Part shown: in pieces, positions 2,562 to 35,509 of the stretch | Numbering within the stretch: position 1 is the stretch's first letter | Layout: the number at the start of each line of letters is the position of its first letter | DNA from: Jimgerdemannia flammicorona | Lineage: Eukaryota | Direction: 5' to 3' | Length of the DNA: 41,222 nt | NCBI GenBank assembly: GCA_003990765.1 | Contig: RBNJ01000110.1 | Coordinates: forward strand, 1-41,222 | The notes under the pieces: generated by a model | The model's input: the letters and a program-made list of their open reading frames with translations, nothing else | Told to the model about the DNA's origin: nothing | Databases searched by the model: none | Program-made: the position numbers and the translations under genes

Positions 2562-3006
2562 TGTAACAGTAGAACTAAATTTGGAAAAAGGAAATAAGGA
2601 ATAGATATTTGATCACCACTAGTCCCAAGTTAGTATAGCCCTATAGTTAGTAGTCCCTAATTTCAACAATTTCTAAATATTTCAAAAAATTTGAAATTGA
2701 AGACCTAATATAGTATAGTATTTCAATAATGTTAAAATGTTTCAATACTTTCAAAATAACTCATAATTTAGTCACCCATCTTATAGCTAGTAAACTTATA
2801 TAAATAACCCAGTATCTTAGAGTAAATAAATCTCAGATCAAAATAGTTCTAAGTAAAGAGAAAGTAAAGAAACTAGTAAGCCTATGGACAGATATACTTC
2901 AAACTCATCTCTGCATTCTAAGAACTCTGTGAGAGTCAGAATAAGTTAAGTTTTCAAAATACAAAAATCCACTATACTTCCAAGGTTAGGTATCTGCTAT
3001 ATTATA
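2562..3006 (+). repeat. 5' LTR of Gypsy B
   Basis: Starts TGTAAC, ends TATA (CA decayed to TA), followed by the PBS; direct repeat of 8775-9208. Confidence 0.92.
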
Positions 3007-3061
3007 ACTTGGTGCCTATTGATAGGTGATTCAAGATGAATCTCTCACTTTTAAGCTAAAT

Positions 3062-6000
3062 AATAAACAATTATCACCATCTGAAAAACCATATAAATCA
3101 AATCAAGATATCCAGACAAGATGGATATAAGACCATCAGTATTCTACAGTTATACTTCAAATAAGTCAATTATTATCTTTATTGATGATTTCAAGCAATA
3201 CACTACTATAAGAAACCTGACAGTAAGGCAACAAGTAACCCTCATACCCTTCAGTCTCTAAGAACTAGCAAGAGCAGTATTCATAGCTGTAACTCATATA
3301 GAAAATGATGATGATACTATACTAGTAGTATAGAAGACCTAGCTCTGAGCCATCTATATATAGATGAGATTAAGCAAGCCCTGAAGAATTAGCTCAATAC
3401 AACTTACCAAGAAATGAGTAAGAATCCAAACATATTCTATACCAGTATCCAATATTAGATAATTCTTATAGATTATGTTGCCACCATCAAGGATCAAGTA
3501 GCTGAAGCAATCTTTATAAAAGAAATCTACCCAGAGATAGCCCTGGTCATCTGCTCATCATCAATAGTCCTGGATCTAATATAGAAGGTCACCTATACTC
3601 AGTGATACATACTAGATAGCCAGACACCTACAAGATCATATAATAGAGAGAGTTATTGGAGTTAGAATTGAAGTACTCAAGGCAACTAGTATAATTTCTA
3701 CTACAGTAATCAATCGAAACACACCTCAACTAAGAGCTACTGAATAATAGAGAAACAGTGACCTTATGGAGAAACTTGCTAAGAAGTTCACTAAAATAAT
3801 AGCCCACCTAGGAGATGTAGTAAAAGAAATTAAAGAAAGAGACCACTATCTAGTTTAGAAATTTGCTACCACCTTAGACAAGAAGAGAGACACCTGCTAT
3901 ATCTGTGAAGAAGAAGACTACTACTCTTATAAAAATATGAGTAAAACTAAGTACAAAGTCCAATCAAGCAATGCTACTCAAAATAAGGAATAAGCCAACA
4001 TTATTACCTTCAAGGAGATTGGGGAATCAGATGAAGAGAAATGAGAAGCCTACTCTACTGAGACTATCAGAAAAGATGTTCACAAATAACTCTATAAGAA
4101 ACCACCAGAGAGACCCAAGAAGAACCCTGTGGAAAAGTAGATAGAGTACTATAGAAAGTTAAGGTGAAGAAATAGATCAAGATATGGAACTAGAACAGGC
4201 TGTTCAAGATATAATCTAAGGAATTACTCCAGTCAGTGAAGGAGAAAAGAAGAAGAAGCTTTGCAAAATCAAGACCTTTAAGTACAATATCTTCAAGGAT
4301 CTCCATCAACAAAAGGTCAATACAACCTTTGACCAGACTTACATTCAAATAGCAAATGAGATATAGACTTGCTGAAACAACTAAGAAGTAAGAATAAAAG
4401 ATAACTGAGGCCAATAATATTCAAAAAGACTCAGGTGAAGAGTGTGAAAACAACTATAAGACCTCTGTTTATATAATCTGTCAAATCGAGGATAGGGTCT
4501 TTGAAGCTATCATTGATACAGAAGCAGAAGGATGTCTCTTTAGCAAGAAAGCAGCAGACTGTCTAGGTTGAGAAGTTGAAGAAGCAATCAAATTTGTATT
4601 TATTATAGTAGATAGTATAAGGGCTATATCTCTGGGAAAGATCTGAGATATTTCCATCAAGTTTGGAGGAGCAACTATTTCAGTAGATATAATAATAACT
4701 AATGCAACCAACTATGTCATCCTTATCAGCAATCAATGACTTCATAAGGCCAAGACAGTAATTGATCTGAATGCTTAGAAGATGTAAATCATCTACTATG
4801 GACAGATGTAAATTTCCATCAATGTCAACAAAAGAGTCCTGCCTGAGATAGAGAAAGAAGAGAGTGAACAAGAGAAAGCCTATATGGTGACAACTTAGAA
4901 AAAGAAGAAGAAATTAGATAGATGAGTGAAGAAGACTGATGTAAGAAGATTATAGAAGGATATGTACTACAAGGAGTCTGCCCTCTTGGGATCTGAATGT
5001 ACTGTATAGAGCATGTCAATGAGTGTTACTAGTATACTGGCAAAATCAAAGAGATCTACCATCAAAGAAGAGAGAAGGCCCTTGAGAAACAAGTAAGAGA
5101 AGAAAAGAAAATAAAAGAAGAAGAGGATGATGAACTACTAGCTCTTCTAGAAGACAGTGATGATGAAGAGAAAATCAAGATCAAGATTCAGAAGATTCAT
5201 CCTAATGTAGTCCTATCAGAATGCAAGTCAGAAAATACAGCCAGAATGGATATTACCATAGTAGAGGAAACTGTACTCAAACTATAGACAACTACTCTAC
5301 TCACAACTGATCTGGAGATAACAATCCCAAAGGATTATATTGGAATCCTCAAGACAAGAAGTAGCCTAAGCAAGAGTGAAATTATGATTGAAGGAGGAGT
5401 CATTGATTCAGATTATATTGGAGAAATCCTACTCATTACTAGAAACTATAATTCTACAATACCATTTCTAGTCAAGAAGAAGAACCAGTTAGCACAGATA
5501 CTGATCTTTCCAATCCTACAACTAAAGATCATAGAAGCCAAGAATATAGAGAAAACAGAGAGAGGAAAGAAAGGATTTAGATCTATAAGAAGAGGAATAT
5601 TCACCAGTATCAAGATCACCAAGCTAGAGCACAAGAAGGAGGAAACTACAAATCAGCACAGCTACACTATTGGAAATAAATTCCCACTCAAGACAGAGCT
5701 CAAGAAAATACTCTACAAATTTAAGAATGTCCTCACCACAGACTTCAAGAATATCAAAGCAAAGACTCCATACTACAACTATGATATAGATACTGGAGAT
5801 ACTGAACCAATTTACCAGAAGGCAAGACCTGTCTCACCAGTCTATCAAGAGTGGCTCAGAGAAGAAATCAAGCAAATAGAAGAAGCTGGTATCATTAAGG
5901 AGACCAGCAGCCCCTGGTCTTCACCAGTCATACTAGCTCTAAAGAAGGGAAGCAAGTCTGGAGAATTCACTCCAAGACTCTGCATTAATTATAGAAAGCT

Positions 6001-7097
6001 CAATATAGTTATCAAAAAGGATTGCCAACCACTGCCCCTCATCAGTGACATCCTTATATGTAACTCTGGGAGATAAAGCACAGTACTACAGTACCTTAGA
6101 TCTATACTCAGAATTCTATCAAATTGGACTCATAGAAACAGCAAGTGAGAAATCAGCCTTCATCACCTCTGACAGAACCTATGTCTATCTGCGAATATTA
6201 TTTGGAATATACAATATACTAGTAAGTTTCCAGTGAATGATGAACAAAATCTTCTACTATGATATAAGAAGATGGCTGATAGTTTATATCAATAATATGA
6301 TTATCCACAGCCAGACATCAGAGGAATATCTGCAGTACATCCAGCAGATAATGAAAAAGCTGAGAAAGTATGACCTGTATATCAAGTCCAAGAAATGCAA
6401 ATTTGCAGAAATCAAGATCTCCTATCTTGGCCACATAATTAACTGAGATAGAATACATACTGATTCTCTAAAGATAAAAGCAGTAGCAGCATACCCAAGA
6501 CTTACTACTATTACTGAAACCCAAGCCTTCATAGAACTTATCTCATACTATTACTGATTTATCAGCGGATTCTCTAATATTGCAGGTCCAATCTATGAAC
6601 TCAATAAGAAGGATACTAAGTTCCAATAAACTAGCAGATAACAAAAAGCATTTGATGAGCTTAAGGTCAGATTGACCCAGGCACCCATCCTCAGAAGACC
6701 CAATTGGACTCAAGAATTTATCCTGCAGACAGATATAAATATCTAAGAACTAGAAGCAGTCCTAGCTCAAAAGAAAGACAAAGTAGAGTACATTATTATA
6801 TATCTCAGCTAAGAAATCCAAGAAGCTGAAAAAGAATATAAATTCTACAAGTTAGAATGTCTTGCAGTTATCTGGACTGTAAAGAAGTTCCACTACTATC
6901 TTACTAGAAGATATTTCACCATTTAGACAGACCACTCAGCTCTCACTTAATTTCTGACCACTGGATAACTCAAAGGAATCTATACCAGATAGATTATGAA
7001 GTTGCAAGCATATGATATAACCATTATATACTACTCAGAAAGAACTAATACCAATGCAGATGCCCTCTTACAGATACCCTGAAGGACCCCCAATTAG
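3062..7097 (+). pseudogene. Gypsy B gag-protease-dUTPase-RT-RNase H (many stops and frameshifts)
   Basis: Zinc knuckle relic (CYICEEEDY; copy A has CYTCGEEGHY), protease AIIDTEA, RT motifs SSPWSSPV, RLCINYRKLN, WLIVYINNM (decayed YxDD), KKCKF...YLGH, RNase H FILQTD, LECLAVIW, TDHSAL, NADAL. Confidence 0.92.
5173..5586 (+). pseudogene. dut: Trimeric-type dUTPase domain within Gypsy B pol
   Basis: KIKIQKIHPNVVL...RSSL (motif II), GGVIDSDYIGEI (III), QLAQ (IV), TERGKKGFRS (V). Confidence 0.92.
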
Positions 7098-7107
7098 TAA
7101 ATTAATT

Positions 7108-8287
7108 ATGAATAAAGAGATCTATTACAGAATTATCACCTATCTAGGACAGCAAAAGATGCCCCAACATCTGGAAGAATGGACACAAACAATTATCAAC
7201 AGAATATGGAAATAATTTGAAACCAATAGAGAAATATTAAAGAAAAGAAAGCTACTAGTTATACCAGAATATAAGAAGGAGCAAGTAATGAAATCAGTAT
7301 ACAAACTTGGCCATCTAGGAGAAATGAATATATATGATAAAGTAAGAAGAACAATATAGTGGCCAGGAATAGAGAAAGATATCAGATGATTTGTCAAGAT
7401 CTGTGATAAATATCAGAAATAAAAATAAGATTAATGAAATCAAGCCCCAGGATCAGCACACATAGAACCCGTACCATTTGTCCACATTATAATAGATGTG
7501 ATTAGTCATTTACTCTTGACTTTGACTGGTAACTGATACATCATCATCATTATAGACATTTTCATGAAATGGATAGAGGCAGAACCCCTCAAGGAAGCCA
7601 ATGTACAGTCAATTGCTGATTTTTTTTACAAAGAAATTATCTGCCAGTTCAACACCCCAATATAAGTAACCACAGATAGAGAAACAGAATTTGTGAATCA
7701 GTTCTTTGAGATTCTCTACAAGAAGTAAAAGATCTAGCATATTTGGACTACAGCATACCATCCTCAAGAAAATGGACAGACAGAAAGGACTAATAAGATT
7801 CTTAAGAATATTATCGCCAAGATCTGTAATAACTACAAAAACTAAGATTACTATCTGCTCTGCTCTCCAGGATATTCAATTATAAAGCACCCATTTCACC
7901 TCTCAGGAAATGCTGTTCAGTGAAGAAGTTCTCAGAAAACCCTATTATCTAAAAGGGATGCTATATAGAAACATGTAGATGGAGAAATATGGAGACTATA
8001 TCAAATCAGAAAGAAGACTAAGAATTACATAACCAAGGTGCAGATATTACAGCAGAATAATATAGAAAAGTTTACAAGCCTCTGGAGATTATTAAGATAA
8101 GAGATAAGGTCCTGATATATCAGAATATAGTAGAAGCTTCATGATCACAAAACTGGAGCTTAAGTGGGAAAGACCTTACCTTGTGCATGATATAAAAGGG
8201 ACCACCTTTTGGCTATAAAAACTCTCAGACACAATCATCTCCACTACCATCTACTGAAACTGACTCAAGAAGTATTATGGCCAATAA
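7108..8287 (+). pseudogene. Gypsy B integrase in a separate ORF
   Basis: Starts MNKEIYYRIITYL; HHCC relic GHLG...WPGIEKDI..FVKICDKYQ; core IDIFMKWIEA, TDRETEF, TTAYHPQENGQTER; C-terminal LKWERPY and N*LKKYY. Confidence 0.9.
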
Positions 8288-8737
8288 CTGAAGTACAGCA
8301 ACAGCACTCAAGATCACTAATACTGCTCAAAGAGCTTTCAAGAGACAATGGAACACTACAGAACCCCTGACTATAGAAGAATCTTATAATAGTATACAAA
8401 GTATCACATAGACCCATCTCTCTCAAATTTCACACTTAAGGTCTACCACCATCAGACAGAGTTCTAAGAGTATTTCAAACTTGGACAGATACTCAACAAG
8501 AGCCTAGAAATAACTAGAGATGATTGAATTACAGAGTCTCAGCTCTCCTATTCACAAATTACTATTGCCAAAAGAATCTATAAGTTATTCTGAGATGATG
8601 AACCAATACTAGCCCACCTATAAGAAATAACTCCTACTAATTTTGAGCTAGTAAGGTGATACTATTGGGAGACAGTTATATAACAGATCATACAGTATAA
8701 GATCATATAGACTATTGAGGCCTGGAAATTTGAATAG
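8277..8737 (+). pseudogene. Extra ORF3 of Gypsy B, unknown function (~154 codons)
   Basis: ATG overlaps the integrase end. Reads MANN*STATALKITNTAQRAFKRQW...EYFKLGQIL...ITIAKRIYKLF*DDEPILAHL...EAWKFE* with one 1-nt frameshift. Many synonymous differences versus copy A. Confidence 0.8.
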
Positions 8738-8774
8738 ATGTTTCAGAGATGAGATCATCTATTTAGAAGGAAGT

Positions 8775-9208
8775 TATGATAGTAAAACTAAATTTGAAAA
8801 AAGAAAATAAAAAATAGATACTTAATTACTACCAGTTCCAAGTTATAGTTAATAGTCTCTAATTTCGACAATTTCTAAATATTTCAAAAGATTTGAAATT
8901 GAAGACCCAATATAGTATAGGATTTTGACAATGTCAAAATGTTTTAACACTTTTGAAATAACTTATAACTTAGTCACCTACCTCATAGCTAGCAAACTTA
9001 TATAAATAACCCAGTATCTTAGAGTGAATAAACTTTAGATCAAAATAGTTCAAAGTAAAGAGAAAGTAAAAGAACTAGTAAGTCTGTAGGCAGATATACT
9101 TTGAACTTACTCCTGCACTCCAAGAACTTTGTGAGAGTCAGAAAAAGTCAAGTTTTCAAGATACAGAAATCTGCTATACTTCTGAGATTAGATATCTACT
9201 ATATTATA
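8775..9208 (+). repeat. 3' LTR of Gypsy B
   Basis: Preceded by purine tract AGAAGGAAG; both TG and CA termini decayed to TA. Confidence 0.92.
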
Positions 9209-9212
9209 ATAT

Positions 9213-10522: not shown

Positions 10523-10524
10523 TG

Positions 10525-10677
10525 TGTTGAAATTCCTAAAATTTGAATTACATCTCAATATGTAGTAGTACAGCCAATCCTTGACTATATCATCAATCAA
10601 CATCATTAAAGTATATATTCTGTAATCAATAATAAACAACTCTCTTCTTGTAAGCCTCTTTTGAATATTCTACAATA
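10525..10677 (+). repeat. 5' LTR of Copia C (~153 bp)
   Basis: Direct repeat of 21393-21546; contains AATAAA. Confidence 0.93.
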
Positions 10678-15238: not shown

Positions 15239-15435
15239 TATAGAATAATAGAGTAGTAGCAAACCTCTCTTCTAACATTGATTTTGTATTGGTGATTTCT
15301 ACTAATATTTATCATCTATATGTATATATTCATCATACTGTTTTTCAACCTATTTTCAAGCCTATAACCAGAGAATTTGAGCATTTTTCAGTTTTTAGAT
15401 AGTAATCAAATATTGTAGTAGGATTTGCAAAGGTT

Positions 15436-15478
<43 letters not shown>

Positions 15479-15553
15479 TTTTTTTTTTTTTATAGTCCCA
15501 TGGACTCCATCTTTATTACCAGTCTATGAATAAGTATACAATATCACCACCCA

Positions 15554-18500
15554 CTATCCAATCCCCATCGGGGGGCCCCTCCCCACCTCTTCACGTATAA
15601 AGACCATCCTCTCACCAATAACTCCAACTCTCCCACCACTCTGACCACAGATTTTCACCACCAAGTGGAACCTCCGACCCCCCTGCAGCCCCCAACCAAG
15701 CCACCAGCCTGTCAAGGTATCCTCCATAAGGCCCTGCCACCGTGATAACCTGCTCCCTAAGCTCTGTCGCCTCCCCTCCTCAAATACAAATAGCCAGTGA
15801 CTGGCCAGCCCAACCCAAATAGCCAATGCCCAGCCTAGAGTAATCTACTCCTCCCCTACCCCTCCTAACAATCGATCCCTCAGGTCCTCCCACCTCCCCC
15901 GTACATCATCACCCCTATGTCTTATCTCCAAGCGGTCCCCAATAGTCTGCCAAAAGTCTCCCAACACCTCATACTCCCCTAGCCAATGTTCCGGTCTCTG
16001 TACAAATTCCCCTTCCTGCCCTACATTATGGCACTCCTTGCAGTCAAAGCAGCCCCCTACAACAAGGTGTTCTGAGCGGAAGTTAAGCATCACATTCCTC
16101 CTCAGCATGTGCCACTAGACCACCCAGTACTTCGGTGGCATCCAATTTTTCACTACTGCACTCCAGGTCCAAACCCCATACCAGTCTCACTCCTCACCAA
16201 TTCCTACTCCTTGCCAACCACTAGGCCACAGATCCTGGCCTGGTCCCCTTTGGCATTCAATTCCATCACCAATGTCGAACTCAAGTAATGGCATGCCTCC
16301 CAGAAGAATGCCATCCCATCTCTACATTGCCAGGCCCCAAGCCCTCTCTCCCTTATCCCCTCACCAGCAAATACTAATGCAGTGTGCACCTTTGGCTATC
16401 CCCCACCAGAAGCCTTTATATCTCAGTTGTGCAGTATTCTGAAGCCCAACTAATGAAAGAAGATCACCAGTCAAGCCTCTTGGAGATGTCCGCCTCTCCC
16501 AAACCTTCTGCAGCAGGGGAACCCAACCCCCTCCATGCAACTCCACTGCCCTTCGAAGCCACCATGCCCTCAAGCAGTGTAGCCTTTTGGGGAAGTCTAC
16601 TAGTCCAAGACCACCTCTTGCCACCAGTAGGGACAAAGTCTCCCAACCAATCTGACTCCATCTGCCAGCCCAAATCCATCCCTTGGCCACCCTCACCAAT
16701 CTCTTCACCACCCAGGCTGGGAAGTCCAGATGATAAGCCAAGTACCACAGCTTTGGCAGCCAGTATACATTCAAAATCGAGATCCTTCCTGCCAGAGAGA
16801 AGTGTCTTCCCCCCCAACCCCACAGGTCTTCCTCCCAAATTCCAATCCTCTGCTCCCACCACAGCCTGGGCAGAACAGACCCATAGACTGACAAATAGAT
16901 GCCCAAGTACCGCACTGCCTCTCCAGTGGGGACAATTGTTCCAATAACTTCTCCACCCACCAGGCCGTTGCCCAGCACCATTGTTTTGCACTTGTGCCAA
17001 TTCAGCTTCGCCCCAGAGTTCTCCTCATATCACTCCACTGTCTTCTTGAGCTCCTCAACATCCGCAGTCACTCCCAAACCAACCATCATGTCATCTGCAA
17101 AGGCTCCAACTTTCCAGCCAATGCCATAGATAGAGAGCCCCACTATCCTCCACCGAATCCTGTCCATTAGAGGTTCCAAGGAAAGAGCATACAAAATGGG
17201 GGACAATGGGTCCCCCTGGGGCACTCCCCTACCCAGAGGGAATGCTACCCCTCTATGCCTATTACACACGAGTGCAGCCCTACTCCTTTCCAGTAGGCTG
17301 ACCATCGCTGACCGAAATGAGACCGGAATCCCAATTCTATCTAATACTTTTGCCAGCCAGACTCGCTGCACCCAGTCATAAGCCTTCTCCTGGTCCAAGA
17401 AGACAAGATGCCCATCCAGTCCACAGGCTCGAGCACCTTCAATAATGCCATGTACCCAGGCCATGCCATCTCTAATAAGCCGACCCCCTATGAAGCCCCT
17501 CTGCTCAACACCCACAATTTGCTGGGCCACCTTCTGTAGCCTTGTGACCACCACCTTAGTCACCAACTTTCTGTCCATATCTAGCAACATTATTGGCCAC
17601 CAGTTCTTCCAATCCTCTCACCTTCCTTTGTTCTTATAAAGCAGCATCACCAGCCCAAGATCCTGCTCCCCCACCCATCTCCCTCACTGCAATATAGAGT
17701 CGCACAGTACCATCAACTCCCCCAACATGCCTGGGACTCCAACCATTCGCTTCCAGAAGTCCCAGGGGAGGTCATCCTCTCCAGGTGCCATACCTGAGGC
17801 TGTTATGGCAAGAACCTGGTCGATCTCTTCCTCCTTTACCAGTATCCCCAGATCACCTAATCCCTTAGCTTGTGGTGGGTGCCAATCTTCTAATATTTGG
17901 TCAATGGCTGTAGCATCTGCCCCACCCTCCTCCTCACTCCACAATCCACTCCATCGCGCCTTCAGCATTCCAAGGATATCCTGTACACTATGTACTAGTA
18001 TACCATCTGAGTCAAGTACCCCTTCCTACTGCTGCTGCACCCTTCTCGCTCGAAGTGTCCTTGTGAGAAACTTGGAAGGCCTCTCCCCTTCCTCCAGCCC
18101 CTGCCAATGAAGCTGTACCACCAGGCCTTGCACCCTTGACTCTTCCTCTTCCTGCAGCACCTGTTGTAGTTCCCCAACCTCTATCTTCACCCTTGTTATT
18201 CTCCAATCCTCTACTCCCTCCACTACTGCCAGTCTCGCCCACTCCTCCAGGAGCCTAGCCAATCTAGTAGAAGCCCAATACACCCTCTGTCTTCGCTGCT
18301 TCTCAGCCACTCTGCCAGCCTCACTCCAATACATCTTGGCCATCTCTTTCATCCTCATCCACCGAACCCCAATTTCAGCCCCTTCCTGCCACCAACTCGC
18401 CACCTTCAGCTGAATGTCTTTCACCCACTCCTCCCACCAGGACTCATCATCCAACAAGGAGGAATTTAGGTGCCAATGTCCCGGCCCATCACCACTTCCC

Positions 18501-19212
18501 CCAAACACCCCTGTCCTAAAAGGCCCCAGTGATCTGACCACAGACACCATTCCGCCTCTAGCACCTTCCAAACATCACGGCCCCAATAGTCGGCTGTCAG
18601 AATCCAGTCAATCCTTGTCCCCAGACCTCCAGCCCAATGCATATAGACCCTCCTGTCCCCCTAGTACTCCCTACCAGCATCCATCAGTGCCCCTAGCCTC
18701 TTGACCTCCTCCCACATTGCCAGCCCCCCACTCTTGCTCTCAGCACCCTGTCCTCCATCAGTTCTATCCAGCTGTACATCCCAAATTATATTGAAATCTC
18801 CTCCAAGCATATCCAACCCAGCTTCAGCAAGAATCCTACTCTCCAGGAGCTCTTTCACCCAATCCACATGCTCCCCCCGCACAGCAGGGCAGTAACAAGA
18901 GCCAATGGTGACTGGTTCCCAACCTGCACGAATCCACTTGCCCCAGACCAGTCTCTCCCCCCAGCTTCTCACATCCCTTATCTCCCCTCTGCCTTTCCGA
19001 ACCAGAATCCTGACCTTGCTATTCCAAATCGCCATGCCACCCCATTCCTTAGACCATTTCATCCTATCAGAGTCATCCTCGCACCTAACATCCTGCAAGA
19101 GGAAGAGATCGGCCTCCAATCCCTTCAACCAGATAAAAATGTTCCTGCATCTAACAGTGCCCCTCAACCCATTCATGTTCAAAGAAAAAATATTGGTTGT
19201 ACTGTTCATAAT
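15554..19212 (-). pseudogene. LINE ORF2: AP-endonuclease, reverse transcriptase, C-terminal Cys-containing region
   Basis: SLNMNGL, LLQDVR, GGDFN (APE); GERPSKFL; LDQEKAYD, GVPQGDPLSPILY, AFADD, YLGI, LSLAGR-like FSLAGR (RT and thumb). Several stops and frameshifts. Confidence 0.93.
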
Positions 19213-19239
19213 GAAATACGGTTTGTTCTCAATCAATCT

Positions 19240-21270
19240 CTACTGCTCCATGCCCCTCTCCTCCTGTGCCATGTCCAGATTATGTTCAGCCATCACCTCC
19301 TCCTCTTCAGCCCTCTGAGCCTCCAGTCCAGCCAACAGCTCATTCATCTCCTCATCAGCCTTCTCCTCAAACTCCTCTCTGTACTCGATGCAAGCCTCCT
19401 GCCAAAGCTGCAACCAATGACACCTGTTCCAACAGTACTCAGTCTTCTCCCCAGCAACAACTGCCAACTCTGCCTCCCTCTCCTTGTCCACCTCATACCC
19501 TTCCTCCTCCAGATACACCATAAGAATTTCCACCTTCAGCACCATCACCACTCCTTCCCTCTGCAAAATTCTTATCCAGTGCTTGTCCCCCATCCCATGC
19601 AAGTCCACCTCCCCCAGCTCTTCTGCCACCAGATTATTCATCATCCGGTACACCCAAAGTAGGTTCCCCACCTCCTTCCCACCCAGGGTCGCTGGCCTCC
19701 CTCCGTCCAGCATCATGGTGTCAGCTCCAGTGCTCGCATCCTCACCCCACACCTCCGGGACATCCACCAGTTCCTCCTCTCTGGCCGCCACTCCTTGGTC
19801 CCCATCCATTACCTCTGAAATGCTGAATTTCACCTGCTGGGTCCCCAGCATCGTCACATCCTCCCCAGACTTATGCCTAGAAGCTGGGCCACACCTGATA
19901 AGAGGGGAAGGGGTGGGGGAGTTCTCCCAGACTTTATCCCAAACCTCCAAGGTGCCATCCGCATATGGGTCGCTAATCTTCGCCTCTTTTGCCTTCCCTG
20001 TCTTTGCTCCATCATTCCCACTCCTCTCCCCAGCCCAGACACTCGCTCTGGCCCCTTCTGCACCCATCTTCATACTCGCATCCTTCTGTGGTCCAACCCC
20101 CAGTTTAGCCAGCAGATTCTTCTGCCTCTTCTGCCCCTGAGCCCTTTCCCACTGCACCTTGTCTACTCGAATCCTCTTTCCATCCACTACCTCCAGGTGC
20201 ATCGACTCGTCGAAAGTCTTCCAGGCCTTAGCTCGCCATTCCACAGCCCCATCCAGCTCCTCTAGCGCTTCTAATAAATCTTCCTCCTCTTCTTCACTTT
20301 CTTTCGCCTGTATCACCTTGCACAGGAATGCTCCCCAAACCATCACCAAAGGCCAGTCCCTCATCTTCCCCATAGCCTCTTTCCCAGCTAGCCGAATCCT
20401 CACATCCACATCCCCAGTCCTGAGTGTGGTCCCTTCCCAGACCCTGAATCCAATATCCACCACCTCTCTGTACTCTGCCATGACATCCTCCACTCTCTTT
20501 CTCATCTCCATCGCCGTCACCATGGATACTCCTTTCACCAGCAGTTGGACTACCCTCAGATCCCATTTCAAGCACCTCACTATCAGAATACATACCTCCC
20601 CAACCACTAACCCAATCTTCAGTACCTCCTCCAGTGGTTCAACCTCCTCAAAACCCACCTCCACCCCCTCCAGCCCCTTCAGAAACTTCACTGAAGCCAC
20701 TCCTGCCACCTACTTAGTGATAAGCCCCAACACCATTTTTGCTGTCACCGCCAAGCCCCGGAAGCACAGTGTAACTGTGAATGCCAAGATCGACTTCTTG
20801 AGTAACGGAGCCACCGCCAGTCCCATTACACCATCTGCCAGGTCCCTGGGCCTTGTGCCCTTCCCACCGCTCAGCTCTCCATCAGCAGTCCCATTTAGAT
20901 TTTTTTCCAGATTGACTGTCACACCCCCATCAGCAGTTCCCGCCCCAGCCACTACCCCCCCAGCTCCACTCTTATGGCCCTCTAGAGAGGAACCCTCAAG
21001 GGATTGCTGCCTGGTAGCCTTCACCGGTATCTTCCCCCCTCTCAGCCAGCTCTCCAGTCCAGCTCCCTACTGACCCCCCTTCACCTTCTCCACAAAGCTC
21101 ACCCTGCCAGATCCCTGCCCTCCAGCTCCTCCCCCTCCTCCACCATGGCCTCCTGCCAGTAGGCCCCTCATACTTCCCCCCAAGCCGGGGCCTCTCCCCA
21201 CTTGCTGTCATTCAAATGCTCCAGGGCCACCCTGCCCAGTATGTACCTCCAGATACTCATTAGTCACCAT
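19240..21270 (-). pseudogene. LINE ORF1 (disrupted)
   Basis: Homologous along its length to 37857-39881; Gly-rich N-terminus, RRM-like AEYxEVVDIGFRVWEGTxLRTGD segment, acidic helical C-terminus. Confidence 0.85.
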
Positions 21271-21392
21271 GATACTAGTAGCTTTTCTCCAGAAACTGTG
21301 TCCAAAGTGTTGCCAAAAGGTTGTGTAACCTGAATGTTACCAGAGAAAGATGTTTTTTTTCTTTATAGTTTGCATATCTTATTAAGTAAGAG

Positions 21393-21546
21393 TGTTGAAA
21401 TTCCTAGAATTTGAGTTACATCTCAATATGCAGTGGTATAGCTAATCCTTGACTATATCATCAATTAATATATGTTAAAGTATGTATTCTGTAATCAATA
21501 ATAAACAACCCTCTTCTTGTGAGCCTCTTCTGAGTATTCCACAACA
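21393..21546 (+). repeat. 3' LTR of Copia C
   Basis: TGTTG...CAACA, preceded by a decayed purine tract and followed by TSD AAGCT. Confidence 0.93.
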
Positions 21547-21551
21547 AAGCT

Positions 21552-22535
21552 AGAGCAATAATTAATCTAAATACCTAAAAGATACAGATCATCTACTAAG
21601 GACTGAAGATGCAGATTTCCATCAATGTTAACAAAAAAGTACTCTGTAAAATAGAGGAAGAAGAAAGCAAAAGAGAAAGTCTATATAGTTACTACTTAGA
21701 AAAAGAAGAAGAAAGTTAAATGGATCAGTAAAGAAGACTAGTACAAGAGAGTTATTGAAAGATATATACTACAAGGAGTCTGTTCAAATGGAATTAATAT
21801 ATACTATATGGAGTATATTGATGATTGCTACTAATATATCAGTATAATCAAGAAGATCTACTATAAGAAGATAAAAGATCCTTAAGAAATAGGCAAGAGA
21901 AGAGAAGGAGGAGGAAAAGAATGATAAACCACCAGCCCTTCTAGAAAACAGTGATGATGAAAAGGAGATCAAGGTCAAGATTCAGAAAATCCACTCTGAT
22001 ATAGTTCTACTAGAATACAAGTTAGAGAATATAGTAAGAATAGATATTATTATAGTAGAATAAACCATACTTGAGCCCCAGATAACTACCCTACTTACTA
22101 CTGGTCTAAAGATGACTATTCCAAAAGAATATATCAGAATTCTCAAGATAAGAAATAGTCTGACTAAGAGTGAGATTACTATTGAAGAAGAAGTCATTGA
22201 TTCTGATTATATCAGAGAAATACTACTTATTACTAGGAACTACAACCTTATGATTCTATTTCTAATTAAGAAGAACTGACTAGTGCAGATATTAATCTTT
22301 TTAGTTCTTTAGCTAAAGATCATAGAAGTCAAGAAGTTGAAGGAAACAGAGAGAGGAAGAAAAGGATTCAGATCTATAGAAAGAGAAGTATTTGTTAGCA
22401 GCAAGATTACCAAACTACATCACAAGAAAGAGAAAACTACAAACAAGCATAGTTATATTATTAGCTATAAAAACTATTAGACATAATTATCTCTACTACC
22501 ATTTACTGAAACTGACTCAAGAAGTATTATAGCTA
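21552..22535 (+). pseudogene. Gypsy A protease end and dUTPase, fused by deletion to the integrase tail
   Basis: EVIDSDYIREILL and TERGRKGFRS motifs at ~21968-22380; jump at ~22463 from B-equivalent ~5670 to ~8210. Confidence 0.88.
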
Positions 22536-22988
22536 ATCCACAGAGTACTTCTACAGTCTTCAAGATTACCAATACTATACAATAAGCCATAGAAAGATAA
22601 TGGTGTATTACTGAGCCACTCTAAATAGAAGAATCCTTCAATAGTATCCAGAGTATAGTATAGATACACTTGTTATAAATTTCACATTTTAAGATCTATT
22701 AGAACTAGACTGAGTTTCAAGAATACTTTAAGTTAGAACAGCTACTGAACTCACAGCCAGAGATGGGAAAAGAAGACTGGATTAGAGAATGCCAGCTCTC
22801 TTATATATATATAAATCACTATCACCAAATAAGTTAATAAGTTATTCAAAGATAATGAGCCAGCCCTAGCTTATTTCTCAAAAGTAGTCCCAGGAGACTT
22901 CAGATATATCAAGAGATACTATTAGGAGAATATAATAATTATACAGTATAAGAAGATATGACTTGTAGAAGCTTGGGAGTTTGAGTGA
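22529..22988 (+). pseudogene. Extra ORF3 of Gypsy A
   Basis: Orthologous to 8277-8737: KITNT, EPL, IEES, FQEYFKL, EAWEFE*; start ATG decayed to ATA. Confidence 0.78.
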
Positions 22989-23029
22989 ATAAGATGTTTC
23001 AGAGATAAATTATCTATTCAAAAGGAAGT

Positions 23030-23522
23030 TGTAATGGTTGATCTGAATTAGGAATATAAATCAGAGAAATAGATATTTGATCATAGTCTCTGAATCCAAT
23101 TCCCAAATATAGTATAGCCTTACAAATAGCAGTCATTTTACAAATATTAAAGTTTTGACAAATGTTAATATTTTTACAAATATTGAGATTTTACAAATGT
23201 TAAATCTTGATGATTATCAAAGATTTAACAGATATTAAGAATTAATACTTATGAAGAGTGACTCATAGGAAACATAGTCATAACTTAGCCACCTTATAGC
23301 TAGCAAACTTATATAAATATTCTCAGTATCTAGAGTGAATAAATCTCAGATTGAAATAGTTCCAAGTAAAGAGAAAGCAAGAGAACTAGTAAGTCTGTAG
23401 GCAGATACACTTTGAACTCACCTACTCCTGCATCTCAAGAACTCTGTGGAGTCAAAGAAGATCAAGTTTTCAAGATACAGAAATCCAACATACTCAGACA
23501 GTTATGCATCCACTATGTTATA
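23030..23522 (+). repeat. 3' LTR of Gypsy A
   Basis: Preceded by AAAAGGAAG; direct repeat of 1667-2159. Confidence 0.93.
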
Positions 23523-23878: not shown

Positions 23879-25201
23879 ATGTCGTTGAACACTCGAAAGG
23901 TATGCACACTTACTATGGATCACTCATCTTTATTTTAGCACACATCTCCCAACTCACAATGTATCCTTTCCCAGCTGGTTGCCATCCAAACCCTGGCCGA
24001 TGCTTGGAAATTACGGGTCGCTGCCCTACTCACCTTTTCAAAGGTTGCCTTCCAAGGTGTCTCTCGAAAATCCGCTCTTACCGAAACAGCCTCCAGAAAT
24101 TTCGCGGCTCTGCATGCTGAGGTCGCGGCATCGCAAGCTGTCGTCGACAAAGTCATGAAGCGGCCTCTACCTTCAGTCTTCGTTGCGGACAATGTCGTAC
24201 CCCTGAATCTCCGCAAGATTCTGAACAGCGGACTAGACGTTATCGCGACTGGACCAGACAGGGATTATCTTCCAGGGACGGGCGACAAGGTTCAAGCCCT
24301 TATCCATCCTTCCTTGTTCCCATACATCGAAGGCGTCAGCACTGTTCTGGACCCATCTATCCTGCCCCGTCTGTCGAATGATCCACTTCGCCGAATTTGT
24401 GGAATGGATTGGGCGATTTTCAAACACCAGTGGCTCCCATCCCAATTCTACGTTGGCGAAGACGGTTCCACGAGCATCAGGTCGTACATCAACAACCTCG
24501 ACCTGTCCCACCAAGAATTATACAGGGCCATCGAACTGAGTTTCTCACTCTTCCTGCCAATGTTCGAGCGAATCCTGGGGACACCCCTCCGCTCTCGCGA
24601 GCTGCAAGTCATTGTCAAGGCGGTCAACCACATAATCCAGCCAGGTGAAAAAAGGTACAAAAGAGAGTGGCACGGGGAGGACACGCCACACGAGCACATC
24701 GTCGCCACTGGTATCTACTACTACTCGACCTCCCCGCATCTCAAGGACGCGGGGCTCGCGTTCCGACATGATCGCTCGTCTATGGATAAGGTCCGGACGA
24801 CGGAGGGCCGCCTACTCGCGTTCGGCAATACGCTGCAGCACCGAGTGTCCGGAATCTTTAACAAGTCGAAGACTGAGATCGGCATTCGCAAGGTGCTCAG
24901 TTTCTATCTTGTTGATCCTGAACGTGAGATTGTGTCCACAAAGCATGTGCCAGAACAGCAGTGGGACCGCGTGCGGCCCCATGTCATGGCGACGCTGAAT
25001 GAAGTGGTGATGAGGACGATCGGGAAGGTGATGCCAACAGAAATCTTACTCGAGATAGCGGAGTGGGCCAAGACGGGCTTCACGTTGGAAGAGGCTCAGC
25101 AGCATCGGACCGAGTTGGTGGAGGAAAAGAAATATATTGTTGGCAATTCTTACTATTCAGAAAACGCATTTGTGTATTTCAGACTGTCATTTTCGGACTA
25201 A
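23879..25201 (+). CDS. DUF4246-family protein (2OG-Fe(II) oxygenase-like), copy 1; join(23879..23899,23975..25201), ~415 aa
   Basis: Motifs IHPSLFP, QWLPS, SYINNL, LQVIVK, WHGED, IVATGIYYY, GRLLAFGNTLQHRV, RKVLSFYLVDP, STKHVPEQQ recognised from memory. The 75-nt GTATGC...CTCAC...CCCAG intron keeps the frame and is conserved in copy 2. Confidence 0.88.
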
Positions 25202-25411: not shown

Positions 25412-26743
25412 ATGTCGTTGAACAATCGAAAGGTATTGCACACGTACTATAGACCACGTATACTGTCCATCCGTTTACTTTAGCATACATTTCCCGACTC
25501 ACAACGTATCTATTCGCAACAGGCGCTGGTCGATGCTTGGAAATTCCGGATCGCTGCCCTGGTCACCCCTCTTAAGGACGTTTTCCATGGTGTCCCTCGA
25601 AAATCAGCTCCTACCGAATCAGCCTCCAGCGCCACCTCCGCGTTGGCGGCTCTGCATGCCGAGGTCGCGGCATCGCAGGATGTTGTCGGCAAAGTCATGA
25701 AACGGCCTCTACCTTCAGTCCTCGTAGCGGACAAGGTCGTGCCCGAGAATCTCCACAAACTTCTTAGCAGCGGGCTGGACGTCATCGCAACTGGACCGGA
25801 CAAGGATTACCTTCCTGGGACGGGCGACAAGGTTCAGTCTATTATCCATCCTTCCTTGTTCCCTTACATTGATGGCGCCAGCACTCTTCGCGACCCATCT
25901 ATCCTGTCCCATCTGTCGAACGATCCTCTTCGCCAAATCTGTGGGATGGAATGGGCGATTTTCAAACAACATTGGCTCCCAACCCAATTCTACGTTGGCG
26001 AAGACGGTTCCACCAGCGTCAGGTCGTATATCAACAATCTCGATCTGTCCCACCAAGATTTGTACAGGGCCATCGAACTGAGCTTCTCACTCTTCCTGCC
26101 AATGTTCGAGCGAATCCTGGGGACGTCCCTCCGCTCGCGCGAGCTGCAAGTCATTGTCAAAGCGGTCAACTACATAATCCAGCCAGGTGAAAAAAAGATC
26201 CGAGGGGAGTGGGCGAGGGAGGACACGCCGCACGAGCACGTCATCGCTTCTGGTATCTACTACTACTCGACCTCCCCACATCTCAATGACAAAGGGCTCG
26301 CATTCCGACACAATTCCCGATCTATTAGCCAAGTCCGGACGACAGAGGGCCGACTGCTCACATTCGACAAAAATCCGCAGTACCAGGTGTCCGGGATCTT
26401 TAACAAGTCAAAATCTAAAGTTGGCATTCTCAAGATGCTCGGTTTCTTTCTTGTTGATCCGGAGCGTGAGATTTTGTCCACCAAGCATGTACCAGAGCAG
26501 CAGTGGGACCGCGTGCGGCCCCGGGTCATGGCGGCGCTGAATGAAGTGGTGATGAGGACGACTGGGAGGGTGATGCCAACCGAAATATTGCTCGAGATCA
26601 CGAAATGGGCCAAGACGGGGTTCACGCTGGAAGAGGCGCAGCGGTATCGGGCCGAGTTGGTTGAGGAAAGAGAATATATCGTTGACAATGCTTATAATTC
26701 AGAACCCGCAATGATGAAATGCAAAATTTCATTTTCAGATTAG
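25412..26743 (+). CDS. DUF4246-family protein, tandem copy 2; join(25412..25432,25523..26743), ~413 aa
   Basis: Intact paralog of copy 1 with the same 7-codon first exon (MSLNNRK) and a 90-nt GTATTG...AACAG intron in frame. Confidence 0.88.
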
Positions 26744-27121
26744 GGACCCTTGTATTGTGAGATGGGTTCATTAAATTTATATTTGACAATATCTAAATAT
26801 ATTCATGAGAAGTTATAAATATATTGGATGAGGTCGTAGTTTCGTGGTCACACTACTGCGACACGAACAACTACGTATGTGAATACGTGGCAAATGAGCA
26901 GGTTCGAAACTGTCCCATGCACCGGAGCGTGAGTTGGATGTCCCGAAATCGGAATCGCTTCAAATCAAATACCAAGGGAAATATAAAATATGTGCTATAG
27001 ATTTCCCTCCCAGCAGAACTGAGGTCCATTACTACGCCGTAATCTTCACATTATTATTACTATTATTCATTAAACATAAATGTAGTAACCACCAATATTT
27101 GATTTACGTCAAGGCCTATGC

Positions 27122-27540
27122 GAACTGTTGTACGAACAGACACTGGCGATCCAAGAGAAGGCGTTAGGATCCGAGCACCCACATACGGCAGTATCTCTGA
27201 ACAATCTGGCTTCTTTCTACAAGGTCGAGGAGACGAAGTCGCTGTTCCAAAATGCCTTATCTTTGAGAAGGTGATGGAATCAGAGCACCAAAATATGGCA
27301 TCGTTTTTGAATAACTTAGCGGCGCTCTACCACTACTAGAAGTGCGACAAGTTGGAGCCAATGTACGGACGGTCGCTTGCGATCAGAACACCCAAACATG
27401 GTTACTATTCTGAATGATCTGGTTTCGCTTTGCGACAGCCGGGGCAAGCGCGATAGAGCCAAACTTCTTTCGGACGGGCACTGGCACTTGTTCCGTTGTG
27501 GGCCTACACACGACGCGATCTTGGAAAGCTCTAGCTAGCT
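27122..27540 (+). pseudogene. Kinesin-light-chain-type TPR repeat pseudogene fragment
   Basis: LYEQTLAIQEKALGSEHPHTAVSLNNLA, then IFEKVMESEHQNMASFLNNLAALY and SEHPNMVTILNDL in shifting frames with stops. Confidence 0.85.
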
Positions 27541-28139
27541 CCATCGAAGAGTTTGGTGAATCCACAAACATTTGCATCTCTATTCCGAAGTGACGGTTTG
27601 TAGGACCAACGTGCACACATCAACGTTGACGTACGTCCATTAGTGGTGGTTATAACATTCATTTTTGGTGAAAAAATAAAACCAAAATAAAGGCAGCTGT
27701 TGATAGTAAGGATTGTATACGGTTAGGTTGATTCAAATCGCCTATTTGCATTATAGTATATTTCGTTTCACTTTCATTGTGATCGTGCGAGTATTTTTTT
27801 CAACTGGCTATGTAATGAGGATTCAACACGGGATATTTCCTTTGGTATAGTGGAATTCGCAAGGAATGCAAGTGAAAGAGGTTGTTTTTATTGAAATTAC
27901 AAAGTCGCGTATTTACGCGCTGACTGATGAGTGGCGTAGTAATTGATGACATAGAGATATGTCTGTTGTATCTTAGTTGGGAATATGGAGTGGGGAGAAG
28001 AGGAACATTGTTTATTATAACTAAGAATCACGTGTCTAAGCCACATATAATCGAGATCTAATATGCATGAATGCAATATAAGCAGGAATGTAATGTAACC
28101 AAGCAATAACCATAAAATGACCATGAATGTACTAGAAGA

Positions 28140-28246
28140 ATGCTATCTACCCATTTTTAAAACATAAGAAACTATAGTGAAAATGAAGGATGTAGATAGA
28201 TTCCAGTGGTAGAAAATCTCAAATAAGAAAAGAAAAAGAATCAGTA

Positions 28247-28282
<36 letters not shown>

Positions 28283-30856
28283 GAACCAGTGAATAATAAT
28301 ACAATGTAATGCTTGAAGAGAGAGATGTATTGTATTGTTTTTCTGCTTCCTTTTCATTATGAAATATCTCATAATTATCAATTACTGATATATAGTTCTA
28401 TTACTAGTATATAGTTTATTATAAGACTTATTTCTTTAGTGTATTGCTTGAACTTAGGTTCTAGAAGAGCTTTGATAAGTAAATCTACACTCATATGCTC
28501 TGTGGGAATGTATTCTAAGTGTATAGTCTTGTTTTTTATATATTCTCTTATATGTATAATAATATTATTTATTAATGTACTTTATTTTATTATAATGAAT
28601 GAAATTCTTAACTATAGTAATTATTAGTTTATTATTCTGATAAATGAGTGTAGAGTACTTTTGATCAAAGTCAAGCTTCTTTAATAGTTGATATAGCCAA
28701 ATGGCTTTCTTTATTACTGTAGATAATACTTGATACTCTGCTTATATAGATAATATTACTACTAAGTTCTACTTATATATTTGCCAAGATACAATCTCTT
28801 TGTTTAACTAAAAGAAATACTCAGTTATAGATTGATAATTATTTAAGTCTCCAGCCCAATCAGTATTACATATATCAGATAGTTATATACTATTGTCTTT
28901 ATTCTTATTACTATTACTTCTGCTCAATTTATTAAGAGTGAGTATATAATATACTATATCTTTAATAAAATCTTTTTAATAGTACTTTAATATAAATTAT
29001 TATAGCAGAAGAAATACTATACTATTTTATTTATAGTATATAAGATATTGGACCTTATTCTAAGTATAAGATATATAAGAGACCCAACTATTTATCAATA
29101 GAAAATATTAGTATAGTTTTTGTTATTATTATCCTTGAGTTTTTTTAACTTTATAGATATTTCTATAAGAGTATTAACAGACTTACATTCACTTATATTA
29201 AAGTATTAGTTTATATATATTGATTATAAGAGATATATGATATATATATTTCTATTATATATAATAGATATCTCTAAAAGGAAGAATATGTTGCTTATAT
29301 CAGTTATCTTGAATTTCTTATATAGGGTTTCTTTGACTCTATTAAGCTTATTTTTCATTATAATAATAATTATATCATCTACTTATAAGCCTATAAAAGT
29401 AAATCCATCAATATAGTATTGAATATATATAGTTATCTACTTCATAGTATATAAAGTTATTATTAAGAAAATATTTATTAATTTTTCTATTTTATAAATA
29501 GACAGCTTGTTTAATACTATATAATTCTTTATATAGTTTATATACTAGGTCATTATTCTGGCTATTATATCCTTATGACTAGTAAATATATATATAGCTT
29601 TTTATCTATATTACTATTGAGAAAAGTCATCTTTATATCTATCTGATGGATTTTTAGATTATATATAGTACTGATTATAAGAAGTATTCTTAATAAAATA
29701 AGCTTAAATATTAGTAAAAATATCTCATTATAGTCTATACTATAATTTTATAAAAACTTTTAATAATAAAATAAACTTTAAATTACTCTATCTTTTCATC
29801 ACTCTTGTACTTAATTTTATAGACTCAATGTAATTCTATAGCTTATTGATTGGTCCAGATTCTATATACTATTCTTAATAAGTGAATTATACTCTTTATT
29901 TATTATATATTATTATTTCTTACTATTAGAAAATATTATCACTTTTCTATAATTATTTAACTTACTATAAGTTGCAATAAATATATATTTATATACTTTA
30001 ATATAGCTTACATAGTTCTTATATTGAGAGATCTTTGATATATCTCAATAACTTTCTAAATTAAAATGAGTTTTATTCCTAAGCTTATGCTTTAGCTTTT
30101 TCTTACTCTTAATGAACTTTTTATTATTATCAGAGGTCTCACTATCCTTAATCTCTATTATTCTTAGCTCAGACAAATTTGGCTTAAGTATATATAATAG
30201 TTGAAAATAATTTTACTTTATTAAAGAGATTGATATCAGTTACTGCATTTGTATTATCTGAGATATAGATATTAAAGTAGAGATTAAGATAGATATATCT
30301 ACACAGAGATTCTGATTTTCTTTTTTATTAAACTATATATCTTATGAGATTACTATATGATATCTATATAGATTTCACAATCTATATATTTTCCCATCAT
30401 ATCTAAGAAATACATACTCATCAGCCTTAAGTTTAAATTTATATAATTTTCTCCTTTTTCAAGAACATAGGTCTTATATCTAAATATATATATATATAGA
30501 TATAATATATCTGATTTTGTTCTGCTTCATAACTCTTCAGAAGTAAGATCATGATCATTTCTAGATTACTTATTATTATTGTCAGATTTCTTACTCAATA
30601 CTCAAGATATATATTGATTGTATATATGTATATATCACTATATTGATCATCTCAGTCTAATAAGAATGATAGTCTGGTCATATTGATCATCATACATATC
30701 ATTTCTATAGCTATATAGTTAAATTACTTAGCTTTATAATATGTATATATATATAATACTACATATTATCTAATAATTTATACTATATTTTCTCAAATAT
30801 TACTTGAATATACTATTGATATATTCATATTTATTATCTAAGTATATATATAGTAT
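28140..30856 (-). mobile_element. Heavily decayed Copia (family of C): integrase 3' part, RT, RNase H, 3' UTR
   Basis: Reverse complement aligns with C (e.g. ~30500-30570 vs ~13010-13080; ~30790-30856 vs ~12730-12800). No 3' LTR recognised; left boundary approximate. Confidence 0.8.
28247..28281. repeat. (AAT)n microsatellite
   Basis: About 11 consecutive AAT units. Confidence 0.95.
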
Positions 30857-31964
30857 TGTAATGTGCCTGGCTCAATAGAGACAAATTACAAGATTGAAGA
30901 TTGATATAGTTTGGCTTAAGCTCTTAGTTACTTTGTCAAAAAGCAACAAAATATTCTAAGATTTCTTGTTGGTATTTAGTGATATAATAGTCAAGTCTGA
31001 ATATAACAGTTGATTTTCTTATTAGGACAGTTCTCTGGATATAGCAGCAATTTGTATATAGTGTGATATATATGATGATCTCTTGTATAGTGTGACAATC
31101 TCTTATATAGCACAGCAATCTCCAAAAGTATGTAATTTCTGGTGTGATGATCTTGTTTCCCAAAGTATACAATTTCTGGCAGGATGATCTTGGTAGTATT
31201 CCTTATGTAGATTTGGCAGATAACTCAGATAACTTGGTTTGGCATGGATTCTTCTATATCAGCTCCTCTGAGAATATTGGGTAACTTGATAACTTGGATA
31301 ACTCAGATGATATAGATTCTTAGCAAGTTATGTCAAAGCCTAGCTTTGTTTATACAGAGTTATATTGTAGACTAGCTCCACTGCAAAGTTGTGTCAGATA
31401 GACTGGCTTGTGGCAAGATTCCTATAGATTCTCTAGGAATAGCAGACTTCTTTAAATTCTTCAGGCTTATCTGGCAAGTAAACCAAAATGTAATAGACTC
31501 TTCTTTGTATTAGAAAGTAGACCAGAGTGAAAAGTAGGCTCACAATCTCCTAGCAGTAGCTTTAGAGTGAGTATTTCTCCTAAGTATTGCAATTATTTCT
31601 AGATAAATTGACTTTGGCAGACATATCCCTTAAAGTGTAGTAGGCAGACTTGTCTTTTGCTTTGATTTTTGGATGGAGGTTTATTCTCTCTTATCTCTGG
31701 GATATTTTATATAAGTTGATTGCTATCTGGTTGCTATCTGGTTAGTTATAGAATGTACAGTATGGCTAAATATGATGTGTAACTTCCACTATATCCTCAG
31801 GGTATAGTATCTTTGAGGTATAGTACCTTCAAGGTTTAGTTGTCTTAATCTGGATATCTGGTACTATTTATATAGTTTCTGTAGTAACTAGATAACTATG
31901 AGAGTAACTATGATATGAGAGAGTCATATCATCTGAGTATCTGATACTTATATCACACATCACA
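30857..31964 (-). repeat. Putative 3' LTR of Gypsy D (~1.1 kb)
   Basis: Terminal inverted repeats TGTAATGTG...CACATCACA; preceded on the minus strand by GATCATCCTTTAGTAGGAA, similar to the pre-LTR motif in A/B. Partner LTR is not in the window. Confidence 0.75.
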
Positions 31965-32004
31965 TCAGTTCCTACTAAAGGATGATCTGTCCTTAAACTA
32001 TCTT

Positions 32005-35508: not shown

Positions 35509-35509
35509 A

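Follow-up and report, generated by a model that had tools for sequence, protein, structure and literature searches.

What is the reading frame that follows the integrase in three decayed Ty3/Gypsy retrotransposons of the fungus Jimgerdemannia flammicorona? The elements, here called B, A, and D, lie within a stretch of 41,222 nucleotides (contig RBNJ01000110.1, positions 1 to 41,222; hereafter the window), which is a patchwork of GC-rich blocks and of retroelements that are AT-rich and decayed. An earlier note, made from the sequence alone, had proposed that each element carries between its integrase and its 3′ LTR a third frame, hidden by stop codons and conserved between two divergent families. 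We have now asked whether these frames were once genes, whether they belong together, and what their product might have done. The relics in B, A, and D are real, conserved, separate from pol, formerly under purifying selection, and dead in the window. Our overall reading, to which we assign a probability of about 0.8, is that they are transition-decayed remains of the third gene (ORF3) of fungal-type Ty3/Gypsy elements that have a dUTPase and no chromodomain.

Three Relics between pol and the 3′ LTR

The features on which the analysis depends are as follows (window coordinates).

About 2573–3010 and about 8775–9210, plus strand: 5′ and 3′ LTRs of element B, from an alignment of the two LTRs; boundaries approximate
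5288–6076, plus strand: longest open stretch of B pol, with a dUTPase domain (PF00692, E = 5.8e-19)
6708–7764, plus strand: RNase H and integrase (zinc-binding and core) domains of B, upstream of ORF3 (Pfam: RT_RNaseH, E = 1.4e-24; Integrase_H2C2, E = 1.6e-11; rve, E = 7e-7)
8170–8287, plus strand: end of B pol, integrase C-terminal module (KWERPY...LKKYY, read from the translation); pol stop TAA at 8285–8287
8277–8737, plus strand: ORF3 relic B (B/A type, about 153 codons; tblastn with P0017, E = 5e-47); stop TAG at 8735–8737
About 8765–8773, plus strand: purine-rich tract of element B, just before the 3′ LTR
22529–22988, plus strand: ORF3 relic A (B/A type, about 153 codons; tblastn with P0017, E = 2.6e-32)
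32508–32005, minus strand: ORF3 relic D (D type, 167 codons plus stop; tblastn with P0015, E = 4.8e-48)
32399–35398, minus strand: pol of element D, reverse transcriptase and RNase H followed by integrase, with a frame that ends just inside ORF3 (RVT_1, E = 8.5e-22; RT_RNaseH, E = 7e-16)
32492–32640, minus strand: end of D pol, integrase C-terminal module; pol stop at 32494–32492

When intact relatives of the three frames (described below) were compared with the whole window by tblastn, they matched exactly three places, namely those that had been proposed. In B, positions 8277–8444 correspond to residues 1–56 of the relative P0017 and positions 8420–8734 to residues 51–153. In A, positions 22529–22804 correspond to residues 1–92 and positions 22827–22985 to residues 99–153. 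The match in D is a single segment, 32508–32008 on the minus strand, which is 57% identical to residues 1–169 of P0015. ORF3 is a sense-strand frame with the end of pol on one side and the polypurine tract and 3′ LTR on the other, as can be seen in B, in which 8277–8737 precedes the tract at about 8765 and the LTR at about 8775; the frame ends there about 27 nucleotides upstream of the tract.

All three relics open before pol has ended, within its final codons, and are read in the +1 frame, shifted by one base downstream relative to pol. The start codon is ATG in B and D and has decayed to ATA in A. As had been noticed from the sequence, the start overlaps the end of the integrase: the ATG at 8277 in B gives an overlap of 11 nucleotides with pol, and the ATG at 32508 in D one of 17 nucleotides.

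The frames had been thought to be hidden by stop codons. Stops are indeed present, at positions at which the relatives have glutamine, arginine, or tryptophan, but B and A are in addition each broken by one indel. In B, one nucleotide is missing near 8445, such that 8277–8444 is in one frame and 8468–8734 is in the next; the frame annotated for 8277–8737 is therefore correct just for the first 56 codons, and the remainder is in the frame of 8468. In A, a four-nucleotide insertion near 22805–22826 breaks the frame, which also has a six-nucleotide in-frame gap and many in-frame stops. ORF3 of D is a single frame with seven in-frame stops.

Element A is a copy related to B whose pol has suffered an internal deletion. 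Its positions 22268–22471 correspond to 5477–5680 of B, and its positions 22461–22689 to 8209–8437 of B. In the element as it stands (21392–23421), hardly anything separates the dUTPase region from the final integrase codons, yet ORF3 and the LTR are retained.

The view that B and D have unrelated LTRs could be checked in part, since no second LTR of D was found within 27800–38200. Comparison of the B LTR with the 1 kb that follows ORF3 in D gave a single 50-nucleotide match (80% identity, E = 8e-4). The matching stretch (31680–31730 in D, 8985–9033 in B) surrounds a TATA-like box and an AATAAA signal and may be a common promoter core in LTRs that are otherwise unrelated.

Intact Relatives in Metagenomes

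Intact versions of ORF3 exist elsewhere. The translation of relic D, with X at its stops, aligns end to end over 172 columns with a 172-residue "hypothetical protein," P0001, with which it shares 44% identity (E = 3e-32 in the search and 2e-40 in the pairwise comparison). Its match to P0015, a protein of 169 residues, is closer (57% identity end to end, E = 4.8e-48). D-type sequences are collinear from a start of the form M-[NT]-QRID through an end in YWDDD. Likewise, B and A are collinear with P0017, a protein of 153 residues, from its MANN start to its EAWEFE end, and a cluster look-up added P0032, also of 153 residues, as a further relative of the B/A type.

Searches with these proteins enlarged both groups. 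With P0001 as query we recovered P0002–P0007, there being seven proteins at E ≤ 0.01 among 76 candidates, and a family profile that included the B and A pieces of the window recognized 22 of 1269 candidates, 11 of the D type (P0015 and P0012 among them) and 11 of the B type (P0017 among them). P0012 is a distant relative of the D type (hhalign probability 96%, E = 4e-9). The 16 cluster members listed all derive from metagenomes assembled at JGI/IMG or deposited in ENA, and the sole name given to any of them is "hypothetical protein." Together with the absence of a Pfam match (see below), this bears out the proposal of a retroelement-borne family without a name.

A D-type profile run against 1.84 billion representative proteins gave nine matches, and none of the representatives was a protein of pol length with an ORF3 domain. 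By eye, we judged three of the nine to be spurious. Two of these are repeat proteins (2097 and 1630 residues), in each of which four stretches of a short repeat were matched, and the third is a TPR protein of 876 residues. No match to ORF3 of either type was found in the viral contigs scanned. The relatives are all in short metagenome records, and in none of these did we see an undamaged, full element that has ORF3 together with its two LTRs.

Purifying Selection Followed by Transition Decay

The earlier note had remarked that differences between A and B are often synonymous and had taken this as a sign of past purifying selection. Frame-by-frame comparison supports that conclusion. Between A and B, pN/pS is 0.29 in the ORF3 frame and 0.79 and 0.99 in the other two frames. 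Transversions, a type of change outside the repertoire of the cytosine-mutating defence, are heaped at third codon positions (16, 12, and 32 at positions 1, 2, and 3). Among D-type DNA copies, dN/dS in the ORF3 frame is 0.13–0.33 in the four of six pairs that yielded a dS value, the remaining two being saturated at synonymous sites (pN 0.23–0.24, pS 0.78–0.81), as compared to 0.56–2.24 in the other two frames.

Superimposed on this pattern is the decay of the window copies. At sites at which the metagenome loci L001 and L003 (see below) agree and the window differs, 168 of 246 changes on the window lineage are C>T or G>A. Of the C>T changes, 52 of 107 precede an A, the context being mostly CpA/TpG. 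The TpA/ApT ratio is 0.95–1.15 in elements B, A, and D as compared to 0.5–0.6 in the GC-rich blocks. The ORF3 copies of the window have thus undergone RIP-like transition decay of once-functional genes.

The idea that the frames are no more than stretches left open by chance in decayed, AT-rich DNA, for which one might cite the stops that riddle the window copies and the frameshifts in B and A, is refuted by the end-to-end matches to intact proteins (E values of 1e-32 to 1e-48) and by the restriction of selection to a single frame.

ORF3 Is Separate from the Integrase

Three metagenome loci, L001, L002, and L003, carry a D-type ORF3 directly after an integrase. In L003, pol is open and includes a dUTPase (3–851, E = 1.6e-15), reverse transcriptase and RNase H, and integrase, and its stop follows immediately upon the integrase C-terminal module, no chromodomain being present; the ATG of ORF3 has been lost from this locus, which is cut off. 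A dUTPase is hence present in pol of both ORF3-bearing lineages, given the domain at 5288–6076 in B. No Pfam chromodomain was found in three-frame scans of B, in the ORF3 sequences, or in the L003 integrase, which upholds the assertion that ORF3 is not the tail of a chromovirus. In L001 (ORF3 at 1790–2297) and L002 (1216–1569), ORF3 has a few in-frame stops at which relatives have Q, R, or W, and therefore similar transition decay appears to have occurred in other hosts.

The junction itself differs among copies. In L001 and L002 (two of the four D-type DNA copies), the ATG of ORF3 overlaps the pol stop as ATGA, an arrangement that is absent from L003 and from D, B, and A of the window. Relative to pol, ORF3 is in the +1 frame in window D and in the −1 frame in L002 and L003, the relation in D having been changed by a one-nucleotide deletion at the junction. 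ATG is the first codon of ORF3 in most records.

These observations bear on a reading in which ORF3 is a C-terminal extension of the integrase, produced by programmed frameshifting or split off by frameshift mutations in the copies seen. The ORF3 frame is open upstream of the ATG in P0004, P0006, and L003, and L003 lacks an ATG at the usual place, as might be expected for an extension. We nonetheless consider this reading very improbable: pol stops at or immediately before the start of ORF3 in L001, L002, and L003; the switch between +1 and −1 would not be tolerable for a conserved frameshift signal; most records keep an ATG as the opening codon of ORF3; and no pol-length fusion was present among the 1.84 billion representatives.

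How, then, might a separate ORF3 have been translated? The ATGA overlap in two of the four D-type copies suggests, tentatively, that ribosomes reading the genomic RNA could begin ORF3 by stop-restart coupling at the overlap, with no need of a spliced RNA. On balance, we would give this mode of translation somewhat less than even odds. Among the RNA viruses of fungi, victoriviruses and hypoviruses are examples of stop-restart translation at overlapping AUGA or UAAUG sequences, and L001 and L002 share with them the overlap of the start codon with the preceding stop. The retroelements differ from the viruses in that the overlaps in the window are 11–17 nucleotides long, in that there is no consistent RNA structure upstream, and in that restart would have to follow a very long reading frame. 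When 110 nucleotides upstream of the ORF3 start were folded, the z-scores were −2.2, +0.6, −1.2, and −0.6, a set of values without a consistent structure signal.

Are the B/A and D Types One Family?

The earlier note had grouped B and D on the basis of two shared motifs, YF-x-[LI]-G-Q-[IV]-L and RIY-x-L-[FY], both of which are indeed present in each. The inference from these motifs to a single family is harder to judge, and our tests lend it moderate support. An hhalign comparison of alignments of intact members paired positions 63–114 of the B type with positions 57–108 of the D type at E = 0.0015 and a probability of 16.5%. A D-type HMM scored 18.1–22.5 bits on four B-type proteins, as compared to a maximum of 10.3 bits in 5000 shuffles of each, such that none of the 5000 shuffles reached the real score for any of the four proteins. 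The reverse test, which involved five proteins, was mixed, with 0, 0, 8, 39, and 7 of 5000 shuffles reaching the real score. Finally, tblastn with P0017 matched D at the same motif (E = 0.004).

It is conceivable, if rather unlikely, that the B/A-type and D-type frames are unrelated, each having been gained or having evolved at the same position in two Gypsy lineages, with the motifs arising by chance or convergence. The low profile-profile probability, based on about 50 aligned columns, would fit such a history, as would the lack of any match between the N-terminal parts of the two types, the poor score of the B type against the distant D-type protein P0012 (E = 0.18), and the weakness of the reverse HMM test for three of the five proteins. 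Against independent origins, the two types occupy an equal position, are of nearly equal length, and start in the same way inside the end of pol; their motifs occur in the same order and at nearly identical offsets; the forward HMM test was clear for all four B-type proteins and the cross-type tblastn match fell on the same motif; and both host lineages have a dUTPase and lack a chromodomain. Because the profile, HMM, and tblastn signals coincide with the same position, length, and arrangement of the start, we favor common descent as the probable relationship between the two types.

Properties of the ORF3 Protein

The product of ORF3 is predicted to be a soluble, all-helical protein of 150–170 residues. 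In seven members of the family, the highest Kyte-Doolittle mean over 19 residues ranged from 0.19 to 1.36, which is below the usual threshold for a membrane segment of about 1.6, and no Pfam env family was matched; as had been argued from the translations, ORF3 is not an env gene. The calculated pI is 4.5–5.2 for the D type and 5.6–6.8 for the B type, and the protein shows no conserved pattern of cysteine or histidine. Its C-terminus is conserved in the D type as an acidic segment with tryptophan (W-S-D..., DDGxGIDAEDAYxYWDDD) and ends in EAWEFE in the B/A type. This acidic, tryptophan-containing peptide may resemble acidic activation domains or other motifs that combine tryptophan with acidic residues.

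AlphaFold modeled P0001 as an all-helical body with a disordered tail; one of the five models was confident (pLDDT 77.4), the others having values of 44.6–55.2. The model for P0017, of the B type, was poor (pLDDT 51.7).

We also searched for a domain that had already been described, and none was found. Pfam gave nothing for the ORF3 relics, P0015, P0017, or P0020, and single matches below the cutoff for P0001 (E = 0.2) and P0012 (E = 0.072). The best match among PDB sequences had an E value of 0.046. With the P0001 model, the best values were E = 0.26 for Foldseek against the PDB, Z = 3.6 for a wide VIA-align search, and E = 0.24 for a search of viral folds in BFVD, values at which no fold could be assigned. 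In the ESM Atlas, the score for P0001 was below 0.9, and P0017 reached 0.95 only with unnamed bacterial, phage, and archaeal clusters, which we regard as leads only. The clusters listed for both proteins were a 127-residue cluster (123 members), Translat_reg (52 members), and Closter_coat (87 members).

One candidate was set aside at this stage. The stretch I-R...D-R-[LI]-Y had struck us as possibly resembling the major homology region of capsid proteins, but this likeness was dropped, as no Gag or capsid family was matched in Pfam at E ≤ 10 and no Gag or capsid fold was among the fold matches, the best of which had a Z score of 3.6 with a P0001 model that is unevenly reliable.

What Might ORF3 Do?

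Chromoviruses carry at the end of their integrase a chromodomain tail that tethers integration to chromatin. ORF3 is like this tail in its place directly after the integrase C-terminal module and unlike it in being separate, in being in another frame, in having no Pfam chromodomain, and in having an all-helical model rather than a chromo fold. Because ORF3 sits where chromoviruses carry their tethering domain, in lineages that lack that domain, and because it combines a lack of enzymatic and membrane features with a conserved acidic tryptophan peptide at its terminus, our first guess is that the protein might be a trans-acting tether or adaptor that links a host factor to the integration complex. 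We consider this guess possible but doubtful. By this scheme, the product of ORF3 would serve the integration complex as an adaptor, in trans. The helical body would bind the integrase of the element or its nucleoprotein complex, the acidic tail would be the contact for a nuclear factor of the host, and a separate reading frame would do the tethering job that is done in chromoviruses by the chromodomain at the same position. The acidic to neutral character of the protein body does not favor direct binding to DNA.

About as likely as an adaptor, and like it less than an even bet, is a regulator, either of expression of the element or of host defence. ORF3 could be a transactivator, with the acidic tail as its working part, or could suppress RNA silencing or the cytosine-mutating defence. 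The tail, a conserved and disordered segment, has many aromatic as well as acidic residues, as might be expected of such a protein. In addition, the dUTPase in the same elements would be another function in nucleic-acid hygiene. Complex retroviruses have accessory genes located before the 3′ LTR, and the position of ORF3 is like theirs; both are small, non-structural frames that close the coding region on its 3′ side and include an acidic stretch, but the BFVD fold search revealed no homology between ORF3 and the retroviral proteins. The evidence against a regulator is that ORF3 contains neither a DNA-binding domain nor a basic region, that it matched none of the known regulators or suppressors, and that the copies in the window have been mutated to death, such that any protection they afforded was ineffective in this genome.

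A broader and more speculative scheme, which we rate as improbable in its full form, would accommodate either role. The elements could constitute a fungal "complex" Ty3/Gypsy group with a dUTPase, no chromodomain, and an accessory gene translated by stop-restart, whose product would use its acidic tryptophan tail to recruit a host factor for the steering of integration or for counter-defence. Fungal LTR retrotransposons would then have, in ORF3, their first family of accessory proteins.

Relation to Known Retrotransposons

The usual description of fungal LTR retrotransposons is of gag and pol alone, to which a chromodomain or a dUTPase is added in some. A conserved and selected third gene in two lineages offers a handle on a step in their life cycle, be it targeting, expression, or counter-defence. 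ORF3 has been missed by standard ORF tracks and by protein libraries, as it has no Pfam family and is represented only by unnamed metagenome proteins. An HMM built from intact members would allow annotators to recognize such elements and to tell ORF3 from "orphan" genes of the host, and the ATGA overlap would offer a testable case of stop-restart translation in a retroelement.

Extra reading frames in LTR retrotransposons are a known kind, examples being the env-like frames of Athila and the ORF3s of the bdelloid rotifer elements Juno, Vesta, and TelKA (PMC5408684). The rotifer and plant ORF3s are similarly third frames between pol and the 3′ LTR, and the rotifer lineages likewise combine ORF3 with a dUTPase in pol and with the absence of a chromodomain after the integrase C-terminal module (PMC5408684). 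The rotifer and plant proteins have no likeness in sequence or fold to the fungal ORF3, which differs from them in lacking a membrane segment, an esterase, an exonuclease, or a fusion-protein domain and in being borne by elements of the fungal type.

A survey of fungal Gypsy elements (Novikova et al. 2010; PMC2864245) includes dUTPase-bearing elements and a non-chromoviral Ylt1-like lineage. A figure legend of that survey refers to an "add. ORF," an additional ORF with unknown function, for which the accompanying text gives no sequence or position (PMC2864245); this frame may or may not be the same as ORF3. We found no description of ORF3 in the portions of the literature consulted, an earlier sighting being possible in light of this figure. 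We regard ORF3 as a new family of proteins of a kind already known, namely the additional reading frames of LTR retrotransposons.

Other Features of the Window

Several further features of the window are worth recording. The regions 15300–21300 (minus strand) and 37550–41222 (plus strand) are inverted copies of one another, about 80% alike and GC-rich (52%–58%), with a very strong GC skew between strands (0.35–0.5). These copies do not have RIP-like indices (TpA/ApT 0.5–0.6), unlike the Gypsy copies. An ORF in the element at 39882–40862 has an Exo_endo_phos endonuclease domain, and because of this domain the element is probably a LINE-like retrotransposon; its 489-residue ORFs (19240–20709, minus strand; 38274–39743, plus strand) had no match in Pfam.

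An 80-nucleotide direct repeat (10524–10603 and 21392–21471, 90% identity) brackets a block of about 10.8 kb that interrupts element A. Within the block, reading of the translation indicated Copia-like reverse transcriptase and integrase motifs followed by the LINE-like element.

Finally, two tandem open frames at 23939–25201 and 25484–26743 are about 86% alike in DNA, and the first has a DUF4246 domain (E = 4e-52). These two frames look like host genes between blocks of retroelements. Farther along, at about 27100–27700, the translation reads as TPR-like repeats of the kind found in fungal NLR-type proteins.
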